Shown: positions 54,016-64,000, counted from the first letter of the stretch. The stretch is DNA of 64,000 bases from Pirellulales bacterium (GCA_035656635.1 DASRSD010000158.1:32778-96777), one strand, 5' to 3'. Notes: a model not told the origin generated them from the letters alone. Numbers and translations: made by a program.

Positions 54016-54089
54016 GAGACCGTAGCTCAGGCCGGTAGAGCAACGGACTTTTAATCCGTAGGTCCTGGGTTCGAATCCCAGCGGTCTCA
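54016..54089 (+). tRNA. tRNA-Lys (anticodon UUU)
   Basis: GAGACCG/CGGTCTC acceptor stem, ACGGA-CTTTTAA-TCCGT anticodon arm and GGGTTCGAATCCC T-arm. CCA is not encoded. Confidence 0.92.
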
Positions 54090-54200
54090 CTGATGTTTGC
54101 GCTATCCACTAGGGGGAGGTGATCATAGCGCGCTGCTCTGGGTGGGAACGTGCAAGCGATGGGCAGGAAAAACACTGCTGAAGACAGCAGCGGCGCTCGC
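54085..54200 (+). repeat. tRNA-Lys 3'-flank repeat, copy 1 (long form)
   Basis: It starts inside the last 5 nt of the tRNA (tctcactgatgtttgcgcta...) and contains the hairpin cactgctg-aaga-cagcagcg at 54173-54192. It aligns along about 110-120 nt with 63201-63320. Confidence 0.75.
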
Positions 54201-54277
54201 GCGCGGGAAGAGCTGGACGCAACAGATCAAGAGCGGGAATTGCGCCGCTATGTGACGCGAAAGCAATGGCAACGCAA

Positions 54278-54556
54278 TCAAGCGTGCTGCGCAAGTTGAT
54301 TTCTTTTCGCCTTCAGCGCCGCCCAGTGTTCCTCCGTGGCGGGCACAATGTAACTTAGTTTGCGTTGCGCCAGCGATTTACCACCCAGCGAGGCATACAT
54401 TCGTCCGTCAAAGAGTTGAACGTAGACGGGTCCAACGAATAGAACGCTCGCGATTTCTAACACTTCCGCCGCGGGTGAATTCTCATTGGGCATAATCGCG
54501 ACGTGGCTGTTACGCTCAAGCATCGTCACGGGTTCTTTCGCATTGCGTTCTGTCAT
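54278..54556 (-). CDS. hypothetical small protein (92 aa)
   Basis: Its start overlaps the upstream ORF's stop in ATGA (translational coupling). GC looks lower than the surroundings. No family recognised. Confidence 0.4.
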   Translation of the reverse strand: MTERNAKEPVTMLERNSHVAIMPNENSPAAEVLEIASVLFVGPVYVQLFDGRMYASLGGKSLAQRKLSYIVPATEEHWAALKAKRNQLAQHA

Positions 54557-54798
54557 AAGCCACCTATTGCTGATAATTGCCCATTGTGATATTGCCCGTG
54601 GTGCTCCTCAATTTTTTCTTCGCACTTACCGATGGCAGTATCCCGATCAAGAAGCGGCTCGGTGGGGCTGCCTTGATTCGCGCATTGCTTGCATTCCCAA
54701 AAGGCAAAGAAACCACCTAAGCGGCGGTAAACGCTGATGGAATAGTCGATGCCATCCCGCGAAAGTGCACGGGAAATCACAAAAGTAACGTCTGACAT
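54553..54798 (-). CDS. hypothetical small protein (81 aa)
   Basis: First gene of the coupled pair. It contains one CKQC pair and an acidic/His C-terminal part (KCEEKIEEHHGQYH). No family recognised. Confidence 0.4.
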   Translation of the reverse strand: MSDVTFVISRALSRDGIDYSISVYRRLGGFFAFWECKQCANQGSPTEPLLDRDTAIGKCEEKIEEHHGQYHNGQLSAIGGL

Positions 54799-55042
54799 CG
54801 TGTCACTCTAAACCAAGAAAATTGCCCAAAAATGTCCCAACTGCCGCTGTCTTTCCGTTGCTGCTAAGCGGATAATTACATGTTACCGAACTTTCGGATG
54901 CGTTCTGTGCGGTACCGTACAGACGCATTCACTCTTTTGCCTTCTCATAGGAACCATCACCCTCGACGTCAGGCGGCGCGGTAGGCCGTCCATTTCATCG
55001 GTGGTTCTTTCTAGCCAAGGTCCGAAGGACTCAGGCCTACCG

Positions 55043-55756
55043 ATGAATCATGAACCCGCGGAGCGGGGGCGTAACCGGCTTTTAAGTCGGTTGCAACCGC
55101 AAGATTACGCGCGGCTCTTACCGCAATTACGAAGCGTTATTTACGAATCGGGGCAGCTACTTTACGAAGCCCATGCACCGGTCGATTTTGTTTACTTTCC
55201 CAACGATTGCGTGTTGTCAGCCGTTGCGGTCTTAAACGATGGTACGGGAATCGAAGTTGGAACCATCGGCAACGAAGGGGCTGCCGGGCTCACCGCCTTT
55301 ATAGGCCCTTCCGTTTCGCCAACACGAATGTTAGTCCAGATTCCAGGCGGCGGAATGCGAATGGCTGCAGAATTCCTGGAACAGGAGGCGCGAGCCAATC
55401 GAACGCTGCACGATTTGTTACTGCGCCATCATCACGCCTTCCTGGCGCAAATGACGCAATCGGTGGCCTGCAACGGCGTACATCCGCTGCTTAAACGTTG
55501 CTGCCGCTGGTTGTTAATGACCCACGACCGGGTAGGAAAAGACGAATTACCGCTGACCCATGAATTTCTGGCATTCATGCTCGCCGTCCGGCGGCCTGGC
55601 GTGACAGAGACCTTGAATAAGCTGGAAGATCAAGGACTTATCACGAACAGCCGCGGCATGATCCAAATCGTGGACCGTACCGGACTGGAAGCGGCTTCGT
55701 GCGAGTGTTATCGAGTTGTCCAGGAGGAATACGAGCGGCTGTTAGGCTCGGCATAA
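55043..55756 (+). CDS. Crp/Fnr-family transcriptional regulator
   Basis: cNMP-binding-like beta-roll (VYFPNDCVLSAVAVLNDGTGIEVGTIGNEGAAG) plus a C-terminal HTH (THEFLAFMLAVRRPGVTETLNKLEDQGLI). Confidence 0.8.
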   Translation: MNHEPAERGRNRLLSRLQPQDYARLLPQLRSVIYESGQLLYEAHAPVDFVYFPNDCVLSAVAVLNDGTGIEVGTIGNEGAAGLTAFIGPSVSPTRMLVQIPGGGMRMAAEFLEQEARANRTLHDLLLRHHHAFLAQMTQSVACNGVHPLLKRCCRWLLMTHDRVGKDELPLTHEFLAFMLAVRRPGVTETLNKLEDQGLITNSRGMIQIVDRTGLEAASCECYRVVQEEYERLLGSA

Positions 55757-55909
55757 ATTCTGACGTGGCGACTCTGTACGATACCGTACAGTTCGTATAT
55801 AATCAGGGCGTTCCTCCTTTCTCGGATGGCCACGCCCTTGGGGATCGTGCCCACATTCGGGTGCCCTCTTTAACCGTCTTGCCCATCCGCCTTCATAAAG
55901 GGCTGGGAT

Positions 55910-62125: not shown

Positions 62126-62171
62126 CAGGTCAAGTGAGAAATCCTAAAAGAATTTTCATATTACGTGTGAA

Positions 62172-63071
62172 ATGTCCATTCCTCGATTTAAATTAACCGA
62201 CGACTCAATCGTCAAGCGGCTGCGCTGGGTCATGATTGCCGCAATGCTGTTCAGTATGTACAACACGTTGGCCGGGCAGCCAGCACGTTTTTGGCTCAAT
62301 CCTGAACAAGCGATCCGCGGCGACGGCCTGCGCCTCCACAATTCCGTCAATCATACTTTTGAATTTTTCCTGAGCCGGGGCTGGCAGCTTTATGCGCTCT
62401 CTTGCCTGATTTACATGGCGCTGGCGTTCGTTGTCGTGTCCATCCTGCCCCGGAAGGCGGCGCTGGTGGCCGGTTTGTCCGTCATTTTTGGCCATTACTA
62501 CGGGTCGTGTAACTGGTTGGCCGTGCGCTGGCATCTGGGTTTTGACGGCGTGGGCTTGTACGCCCTGCTGTTGAGTGCGGCGATTGCCTGGGTGGTTTCT
62601 CCGATTCCCAACCAGACGGGCGATGAAATCCTCCGGCGGCTCCGCTGGGTGATGTTTGGCGTGATGCTTTTTGATCCGATTCTCACCCTGATAGGCCAAC
62701 CTGGCTCGTATTGGGCGCATCCAGAAACCGTGCATGAGGCCAACGGGTTTTGGCGCTGGTTCATGGTGCGGGGCTGGTCGGATTTTGTGCTGATGCACCT
62801 GCTTTACGACCTAGGCGCGTTTTGGCTGGCCTCAACTCTTCCGAGACGTTATGCGGTGGTGATAATTTTCGCATTTACATTTGGCCATTTTGACGGCGCA
62901 TCGAATTGGTTGTTCTACGAATGGAGACTGGGTATCGAAACGCCGGTCATTTACGGAATCGTTTTGAGTTCGATCATCGTTTTCCTTTCATTTCGCCGCA
63001 GCAAAGAACCAAATTCTATGACTGAGAATTCGCCCGCGTCGACGGCTGCCGCCCGTACGGTCTGCTGTTGA
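62172..63071 (+). CDS. hypothetical membrane protein made of two homologous halves
   Basis: RLRWVMIAAMLF...GQPARFWLNPE...FGHYYGSCNWL repeats as RLRWVMFGVMLF...GQPGSYWAHPE...FGHFDGASNWL. Confidence 0.6.
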   Translation: MSIPRFKLTDDSIVKRLRWVMIAAMLFSMYNTLAGQPARFWLNPEQAIRGDGLRLHNSVNHTFEFFLSRGWQLYALSCLIYMALAFVVVSILPRKAALVAGLSVIFGHYYGSCNWLAVRWHLGFDGVGLYALLLSAAIAWVVSPIPNQTGDEILRRLRWVMFGVMLFDPILTLIGQPGSYWAHPETVHEANGFWRWFMVRGWSDFVLMHLLYDLGAFWLASTLPRRYAVVIIFAFTFGHFDGASNWLFYEWRLGIETPVIYGIVLSSIIVFLSFRRSKEPNSMTENSPASTAAARTVCC

Positions 63072-63200
63072 GGATATGAAACCTCACCGTGCGGCGTCGA
63101 TAAGAGCCATCATCGCCCGGCGGATGGGCGTTGGGCAGCTTGGGATAGACGGCAGCGCCAAGACGCCCAGCACGAAGGTGCTTGGCTCGGGGACGGCTGC

Positions 63201-63320
63201 TCTCACTGATGTTTGCACGATCTATTGGGGTGCGGTGATCATAGGGCGCTGCTCTCGTGGGAACGTGCAAGCGATTGGCGGGAAAAAACACTGCTGAAGG
63301 CAGCAGTGGCGTCCGCGCGA
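63201..63320 (+). repeat. tRNA-Lys 3'-flank repeat, copy 3 (long form)
   Basis: tctcactgatgtttgcacga... with the hairpin cactgctg-aagg-cagcagtg at 63289-63308. The hairpin is at the same offset (108 nt) as in copy 1. Confidence 0.75.
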
Positions 63321-63486
63321 TTTGCTGCGTGTTGCCGATCCGTTTGCAAACAACAGGCAACGGGGTGATCCTTGTGATAACCCATGGGTGCGACGAATCG
63401 CAGCGTGGCACGGAAATATCTGAGGCGGCGGGGCCATTGAAAGGCTCGGGCAACTGCATACGATTTATGCGGGGAGGGCTTCCGCA

Positions 63487-63867
63487 ATGAAACTGCGTGT
63501 CTTGATCGTGGATGACAGCCGGGATGCGTTGCATCTTCTTGATCGTTTAATGGCTCATCACGACTGCGAAATTCGCACCTGCCAGGATAGCGTAAACGCT
63601 GTGCAAACAGTGCAGGAATTCATACCGCACGTTATTTTTCTGGACATTGCAATGCCCGGCTTAGATGGCTTCGAGGTGGCCGAAGATTTGCACGACCTTA
63701 ATCTGCCAAATTACCTGCTAGTTGCGCTTACCAGCCACAGCGATGAACCACATCGCAAGGAATGTGAAGCATCCGGCTTTGAACTGTTCTTATCCAAACC
63801 GGTTTCCATTGAGGACGTTGGACACGTAATTCAGTTGGCAAAAAAGCGGTTTCTAGCGACAATCTGA
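63487..63867 (+). CDS. stand-alone response-regulator receiver domain protein
   Basis: VLIVDDS, the phospho-acceptor context VIFLDIAMPGLDG, LVALTSH and LSKP. GGGGAGGG lies upstream. Confidence 0.85.
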   Translation: MKLRVLIVDDSRDALHLLDRLMAHHDCEIRTCQDSVNAVQTVQEFIPHVIFLDIAMPGLDGFEVAEDLHDLNLPNYLLVALTSHSDEPHRKECEASGFELFLSKPVSIEDVGHVIQLAKKRFLATI

Positions 63868-63959
63868 CGCGGTGGGCTTTAACAAAACCGCCGTCTAAAC
63901 ACCAATCGCCCAAACACAAACGCGGCCAGCACAAAAGTGCTGTGTTGCGGTAGGGCTGT

Positions 63960-64000
63960 TCTCACTGATGTTTGCGCTACCATTGGGAGCCGGCAATAAC
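63960..64000 (+). repeat. tRNA-Lys 3'-flank repeat, copy 4 (truncated by the window end)
   Basis: tctcactgatgtttgcgctaccattgggagccgg parallels copy 1 (tctcactgatgtttgcgctatccactagggggagg). Confidence 0.6.

Follow-up and report, generated by a model that had tools for sequence, protein, structure and literature searches.

A tRNA-Lys gene and direct repeats of its 3' end

The DNA analyzed here is a window of 64,000 nucleotides (the whole stretch, from which positions are counted) of a Pirellulales bacterium (GCA_035656635.1, DASRSD010000158.1:32778-96777). Our subject is the 10 kb at its end, where a short core sequence that begins in the end of a tRNA-Lys gene is found in four direct copies. 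By its flanking proteins and contigs, the host is an uncultured member of the Pirellulales (Planctomycetota) found in soil metagenomes. The tRNA-Lys(UUU) gene (54016-54090, plus strand) is intact (ARAGORN; Rfam RF00005, 75.1 bits), and its last 5-6 nt (TCTCA) are the opening bases of the repeated core.

The 20-mer TCTCACTGATGTTTGCGCTA starts at 54085 and recurs in direct orientation at 61251 and 63201, with two mismatches each, and at 63960, with none. The shorter string ACTGATGTTTGCGCTA is exact at 54089, 61255 and 63964 and has two mismatches at 63205, all on the plus strand. A 16-mer search that allowed up to three mismatches found the four copies and one unrelated site, against 0.57 sites expected, and none of 100 shuffles reached five. 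An earlier reading of the same DNA, made from the sequence alone (the sequence-only reading), had placed the start of the core in the last 5 nt of tRNA-Lys (54085) and its direct copies near 61255, 63201 and 63960. All four are there, as exact or two-mismatch matches.

The copies differ in what surrounds the core. In copy 1 (54085-54104, plus strand), an attL-like junction, the tRNA leads into the core and the core into a sequence that we call unit U. In copy 2 (CCTGACTGATGTTTGCGCTAT, 61251-61271, plus strand), the core is preceded by a decayed 3' part of tRNA-Lys and followed by mostly unrelated AT-rich DNA, and the likeness to copy 1 ends abruptly past the core. In copy 3 (TCTCACTGATGTTTGCACGA, 63201-63220, plus strand) and copy 4 (63960-64000, plus strand), the core lies between the decayed tail of a minus-strand PEP-CTERM gene and U. 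The U of copy 4 is shortened and runs to ~64011 in L001, a contig that extends the window. As repeats of the tRNA 3' end, copy 2 carries ~50 nt of tRNA and 21 nt of core, and copies 3 and 4 carry 5 nt of tRNA and the trailer.

The sole segment common to all four copies is the sharply bounded core. Its left edge is sharp when copy 1 is compared with copies 3 and 4 (similarity to the left of TCTCA is not significant, and to the right it is 79-86%), and its right edge is sharp when copies 1 and 4 are compared with copy 2. Between copies 1 and 2, the core is identical at 19 of 21 positions and the tRNA arm at 26 of 40, and identity falls to the random level right past GCGCTAT. The core is perfectly kept over 12-20 nt among the copies, whereas the flanks have diverged by 14-29%. 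The core of copy 4, for example, is identical to that of copy 1 at 20 of 20 positions although its U has diverged by ~21%. A common core, sharp edges and better conservation than the flanks point to an att-type (attachment site) core, and one core with exchangeable arms is the defining pattern of an att site.

The repeats also mark the limits of synteny. On the left, the gene order from an aminotransferase gene to that of LPG synthase, then tRNA-Ala, a 367-aa (amino acid) gene and tRNA-Lys, is syntenic in every relative examined. Synteny ends at the 3' end of tRNA-Lys, with variable DNA beginning within or just past its final bases, and resumes ~100 nt past core copy 4. In L001, a 374-aa gene and a SnoaL-like gene lie just past copy 4, and this pair is kept in relatives, where DNA homology is back from about window position 64096. 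Because homology restarts ~100 nt after copy 4 and breaks off on the left at the tRNA, the non-syntenic block is bounded by copies 1 and 4. The 10-kb block is exactly the stretch without synteny in relatives, and copy 4 stands at its right edge.

Arms of the repeats

The sequence-only reading had described a degenerate tRNA before copy 2 and counted 35 identical positions of 42 between 61230-61271 and 54064-54105. The count is exact, and the likeness goes further, as local alignment follows it to about position 22 of the tRNA (0.0005 of shuffles). The remnant (61203-61250, plus strand) is a decayed 3' part of tRNA-Lys, from the anticodon arm to the acceptor strand, that is ~71% identical to the live gene and in which nearly all substitutions are towards A or T. 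We also considered tRNA remnants to the left of copies 3 and 4 and rejected them, the similarity not being significant (0.13 and 0.53 of shuffles).

The left arms of copies 3 and 4 resemble the end of a protein gene. Directly left of core copy 3 is a decayed PEP-CTERM sorting-signal tail on the minus strand (63153-63194; VPEPSTFVLGVLAL, followed by a frameshift), found by tblastn and blastn to a PEP-CTERM gene of the relative L015. Overlapping core copy 4, also on the minus strand, is a 34-codon open frame (63879-63983) that ends in the 24 residues of a degenerate PEP-CTERM tail (LPQHSTFVLAAFVFGRLVFRRRFC, then a stop). At the DNA level, the 3' end of the L015 dockerin/PEP-CTERM gene is 90% identical to the arm of copy 3 (39 nt) and 80% identical to that of copy 4 (51 nt). 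The L015 tail itself passes both TIGR02595 and PF07589, and the peptide of copy 3 has an E value of 0.0046 with PF07589, below the cut-off of that family. That these two arms appear to derive from a PEP-CTERM gene is a new observation relative to the sequence-only reading, which had described a tRNA remnant ahead of copy 2.

The copy 4 tail lies in the same frame as the neighboring 374-aa gene. That the tail is the native end of this gene was ruled out: 17 homologs of the 374-aa protein end ...WLLVRxxQ and have no such tail, and the shared frame is therefore a coincidence. Large surface proteins of the dockerin, GloVer-repeat and PEP-CTERM kinds are encoded a few kb from tRNA-Lys in L015 (12967-14400) and L018 (12590-15262), and the decayed tails in the window are closest to the tail of the L015 gene.

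To the right of the core, U1 (54105-54205, the ~100 nt that follow the core, plus strand) is 86% identical to U3 (63221-63325, plus strand). Counted from the tRNA end, copies 1 and 3 share ~120 nt at 86% identity, and copy 4 shares ~53 nt at 79%. An 18-nt patch past copy 2 (61360-61377, plus strand) matches the end of U3 (63307-63325; 0.011 of shuffles) at nearly the same offset from the core (109 and 106 nt), and may be what remains of a U unit. In the metagenome run that holds the organism (even depth of ~7x; 84% of the run was read), U occurs at 80% identity or more only in copies 1, 3 and 4. On these metagenome contigs, U is not a dispersed repeat of the REP (repetitive extragenic palindromic) or MITE (miniature inverted-repeat transposable element) type; a generic REP-type repeat was an outcome that the sequence-only reading had named as contrary to its proposal. 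A degenerate pattern of the core found only short chance matches of 20-25 nt in 185,579 reference genomes, a metagenome collection and IMG/VR, none of them beside tRNA-Lys or with U.

The tRNA-Lys locus in relatives

Immediately past the discriminator base of tRNA-Lys, four unrelated sequences occur among five related loci. In the closest relative, L015, whose flanking gene is 82% identical, a gene for a phage-type tyrosine integrase (PF00589, phrog_1) begins ~120 nt past tRNA-Lys. The window and L015 have the stretch TCTCACTGAT in common and diverge after it. A second relative, L018 (74%), has right after its tRNA-Lys (11343-11476) 135 nt of the L015 arm between tRNA and integrase, 87% identical, together with ~19 integrase codons; the remainder of the integrase gene is deleted. 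The stub of an L015-type integrase in L018 documents decay of an integrase at tRNA-Lys, so that integration at this gene, and later loss of the integrase, are on record within the lineage.

Genes and composition of the block

The gene content given by the sequence-only reading was confirmed: a Crp-type helix-turn-helix regulator, a pump with OEP, MFS and HlyD-type parts, an SRAP peptidase, a membrane protein and a receiver domain. Closest to the tRNA are two overlapping small open reading frames (ORFs) of 92 and 81 aa (54278-54798, minus strand), which have no family match and lie in mildly AT-rich DNA. The 81-aa and 92-aa ORFs are translationally coupled, and orf81 has a CxxC ... HH pattern. 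Downstream are a Crp/Fnr-type regulator (55001-55756, plus strand; PF13545, E = 4.9e-16) and a tripartite efflux pump (56400-61032, both strands), made up of an outer-membrane factor (56400-58202, plus), a DHA2 MFS transporter (58222-59841, minus) and an HlyD-type membrane-fusion protein (59869-61032, minus). Module 2, between copies 2 and 3 (61466-63071, plus strand, AT-rich), has an SRAP/YedK-type peptidase (61466-62125; PF02586, E = 2.1e-66) and a 299-aa membrane protein (62172-63071). Module 3, between copies 3 and 4, has a stand-alone response-regulator receiver domain (63487-63867, plus strand; PF00072, E = 3.6e-22). Neither orf81, orf92 and orf100 nor the 299-aa protein has a match in Pfam, NCBIfam, PHROGs or PADLOC.

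GC content is 0.531 in 54.2-56.4 kb, 0.518 in module 2 and 0.512 in module 3, versus 0.565 in the rest, which places these three among the lowest 1-4% of core chunks of the same size. The AT-richness that the sequence-only reading had noticed is therefore present, in mild form, in three of the four sub-blocks; the pump, which makes up most of module 1 and is core-like, does not share it. In contig L029 (2214-6869), the three pump orthologs stand in the same arrangement, next to a small dockerin-like gene and a DksA/TraR-type zinc-finger gene. No tRNA pieces or att-like repeats were found around this ortholog block.

Origin of the block

We lean, with modest confidence, towards the view that the stretch from 54091 to ~64070 is a composite genomic island that arose through site-specific recombination at the core and is now decayed and without an integrase. 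The recombination core would be the 16-20 nt of TCTCACTGATGTTTGC(GCTA), that is, the last 5 nt of tRNA-Lys and the trailer. One or more elements whose attP was of the form PEP-tail, core and U would have entered at tRNA-Lys, and a further element with a longer tRNA-like arm would have entered likewise. The recombinase genes of these elements would later have been deleted and the contents reshuffled, and the reshuffling would have brought in the lineage-resident efflux pump. The outcome would be blocks with att-type scars at their ends, much as in cis-mobilizable elements. The sequence-only reading had proposed the att footprint of integration at a tRNA 3' end. The common core, the exchangeable arms, the synteny break, the non-dispersed U and the integrase and integrase stub of the relatives agree with this, but a PEP-CTERM tail ahead of copies 3 and 4 was not part of it. 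It had also proposed tandem accretion of integrative elements; the att-type blocks are there, but three clean cassettes are too tidy a description of a block with a lineage-resident pump, and a mosaic island fits better.

Several results weigh against such an island. No called gene from 42.8 to 71.5 kb in window coordinates matches a recombinase family, and a tblastn search with the integrase of the relative turned up no remnant at the window locus. The sequence-only reading had allowed for a recombinase beyond position 64000; there is none within 7.5 kb beyond it or within 11 kb upstream. The module genes are missing from the tRNA-Lys locus of the relatives L015, L018 and L026, but there is no true empty site: no relative has both flanks adjacent, and the flanks occupy different places in relatives. 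In contigs of four soil metagenomes (depth of at most 7x, rare variants dropped), no repeat-to-repeat joints or excision junctions were seen, and contig-level data of the same kind at 7x showed no depth steps across the locus. The pump (4.6 kb) has a GC content of 0.565 and is indistinguishable from the rest in GC and tetranucleotide usage, and the ortholog block in L029, from the metagenome of the 74% relative, has 71-81% amino acid identity, in the range of core genes, and occupies another locus. Given this core-like composition and divergence, half or more of the 10 kb is not recently foreign, and the pump appears to be a lineage resident that moved and no recent import. At 90% identity, every module protein is a singleton, and there is thus no sign of recent spread. 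Lastly, the arms are partly homologous, being tRNA-like or U-like, a pattern that duplication could also yield.

This last point bears on an origin independent of any recombinase, which we consider rather unlikely. Segments with a tRNA-Lys end and trailer, or with PEP-tail, core and U, could have been placed here by host homologous recombination or replication slippage, by routes such as Campbell-type insertion or 'insertion with long target duplication', with a spare target end left beyond each insert. Such an origin would account for the lack of a recombinase nearby and for arms that are homologous past the core in copies 1 and 2 and in copies 3 and 4, and a 258-nt internal fragment of the SRAP gene is indeed duplicated elsewhere. 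However, the edges of homology are sharp on either side of the core in different pairs of copies, and a perfect core between diverged flanks is not what simple duplication and decay predict. In addition, homologies of 17-50 nt are short for RecA, and the sister lineage has a dedicated integrase at the same tRNA. A broader version seems to us improbable, namely that the tRNA-Lys array is one instance of genome-wide recombinase-independent acquisition of cassettes in this Pirellulales lineage. We give equally little credence to its proposed course, in which incoming DNA with a short copy of a conserved gene end enters by host recombination and the spare ends remain as brackets. In a milder variant of the lineage-wide idea, the four cores would still be live sites of a cassette array that is served in trans by a tRNA-Lys-specific integrase.

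Selection on the repeat itself is another doubtful alternative to the composite island: core and U would be a functional cis element (a terminator, regulatory module or structured RNA) that was copied to intergenic sites and kept. U1 and U3 hold the two best matches to intrinsic terminators in the region, both strong and both on the minus strand (54192-54173 and 63308-63289), and a one-sided change between them preserves pairing. The U1 terminator ends the orf81-orf92 operon, but there is no minus-strand gene for the U3 terminator to end, which is why we regard the latter as a relic. On the plus strand (54085-54167 and 63201-63283), the core can pair with its complement ~55 nt downstream (GATGTTTGCGC with GTGCAAGCGAT) in an imperfect hairpin of 80 nt. 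None of 200 shuffles folds as well as U3 (z = -3.3), but the folding of U1 is not unusual (z = -1.1), and no compensatory changes were found in the U hairpin. The core also has a weak promoter-like spacing, TTGCGC-18-nt-(C/G)AT(A/C)AT, noticed by eye only. A cis element would leave the synteny break unexplained, and copies 2 and 4 lack most of U. Furthermore, the only three copies of U are all at one locus, and an Rfam search of 52.4-64 kb found two tRNAs only, with no family match for U. An assembly artefact, with the window chimeric within the SRAP gene and copies 1-2 and 3-4 coming from two different loci, is very improbable. The suspicion arises from contigs of the Joint Genome Institute (JGI), which end at 61883 and begin again at 61925, within the SRAP gene. 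The break (61884-61924) is explained by the 258-nt internal SRAP segment (61822-62079), which is present a second time in the metagenome at similar depth and with non-SRAP flanks. The unitig graph has two arms on the left and two on the right of this common segment, all similar in depth, and the exact SRAP protein is on record in no other assembly. Against a chimera, SRAP is canonical and full-length (Pfam positions 1-213 of 214) only with the arm pairing of the window, and the alternative arms run into non-SRAP sequence and so flank a mere fragment. Depth is even, ~7x, on either side of the join, and the source record is one 104-kb contig with genes from both sides. Since only this join gives the full-length SRAP, we accept it as very probably correct. 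The repeats themselves, with a longest exact string of 20 nt between any two copies, are too short to confuse an assembler.

Comparison with known systems

Islands with phage-type tyrosine integrases that target tRNA genes reportedly fall into classes by integration site, as Williams is said to have described in Nucleic Acids Res in 2002. The block shares with them the target at a tRNA 3' end, the restored tRNA end, a partial tRNA copy (copy 2) at the far junction and, in the sister lineage, an integrase immediately past the tRNA. Unlike these islands, the window locus has no integrase, and the tRNA portion repeated in copies 3 and 4 is only 5 nt long. In the insertion with long target duplication reportedly described for restriction-modification units by Nobusato et al. 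in 2000, gene units likewise have a duplicated target stretch on both sides, and no recombinase is in view. The window differs in the sharp edges of the core, the different arms and the site-specific integrase at the orthologous site of a relative.

A complete integron has intI, whereas integron cassette arrays without it, or CALINs (clusters of attC sites lacking integron integrases), are integrase-less groups of attC sites, in each of which a core and inverse-core pair forms a hairpin. As in CALINs, short gene blocks are here split by repeats that look like recombination sites, with no adjacent integrase. In contrast to CALINs, the repeats in the window share sequence and not structure only, and the array is anchored on a tRNA. 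We rejected an attC or integron reading on anatomy: the long hairpin can form only in U1 and U3, and not in copies 2 and 4. No GTTRRRY/RYYYAAC pair was seen by eye in the window repeats.

There is a close likeness in layout to the tandem islands of Dehalococcoides that are specific for ssrA, in which 20-bp repeats of the ssrA end each have a non-ssrA motif to their left and some blocks have no integration module (PMC3146451). Both systems have direct repeats of ~20 nt of an RNA gene end downstream of the intact gene, which delimit blocks that break synteny, and in both a motif to the left of the repeats does not align with the RNA gene and marks the crossover point. The window differs in having four repeats in 10 kb and no block with a recombinase. 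In addition, its left arm is a decayed PEP-CTERM coding tail, its pump cargo looks lineage-resident, and the integrase of its relatives is a tyrosine and not a serine recombinase. Cis-mobilizable elements (CIMEs) have lost their integration and transfer genes and kept attL and attR, and by site-specific accretion they stand in tandem at the 3' end of the target (PMC5704250, reviewing Pavlovic et al. 2004). tRNA-Lys is a documented target in streptococci, and mobilization of a CIME by an incoming element has been demonstrated (PMC5704250). The window locus is like a CIME in that att sites are kept and recombinase and transfer genes are absent. A difference is that mobilization has been shown for CIMEs, and CIMEs belong to Firmicutes families of ICEs (integrative and conjugative elements) and IMEs (integrative and mobilizable elements), which are unrelated to the planctomycete locus.

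The composite island proposed here is of a familiar kind and opens no new category of biology. The locus points to tRNA-Lys as a hot spot of recombination in uncultured Pirellulales from soil, with three stages of island decay visible across relatives: the integrase is intact in one, reduced to a stub in another, and absent in the third, where only att-type scars are left. This could be of use in annotating planctomycete metagenome-assembled genomes, and in understanding how an efflux pump, an SRAP peptidase and a receiver domain come to adjoin tRNA genes. The core and the integrase of the sister lineage could also be tried as a site-specific integration tool in a phylum that has few genetic tools.

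A related integrase at tRNA-Pro

An integrase that is 41% identical to that of L015 is found in a like layout after tRNA-Pro, on the IMG/VR contig L033 (2225-3586, ~115 nt past tRNA-Pro). No far att repeat of the integrase elements was found within the 4-11 kb of sequence in L015/L016 and L033. The arms of L033 and L015 both have a palindrome, CCGGTA-N3-4-TACCGG, just upstream of the integrase start, which is possibly a shared regulatory or binding site.

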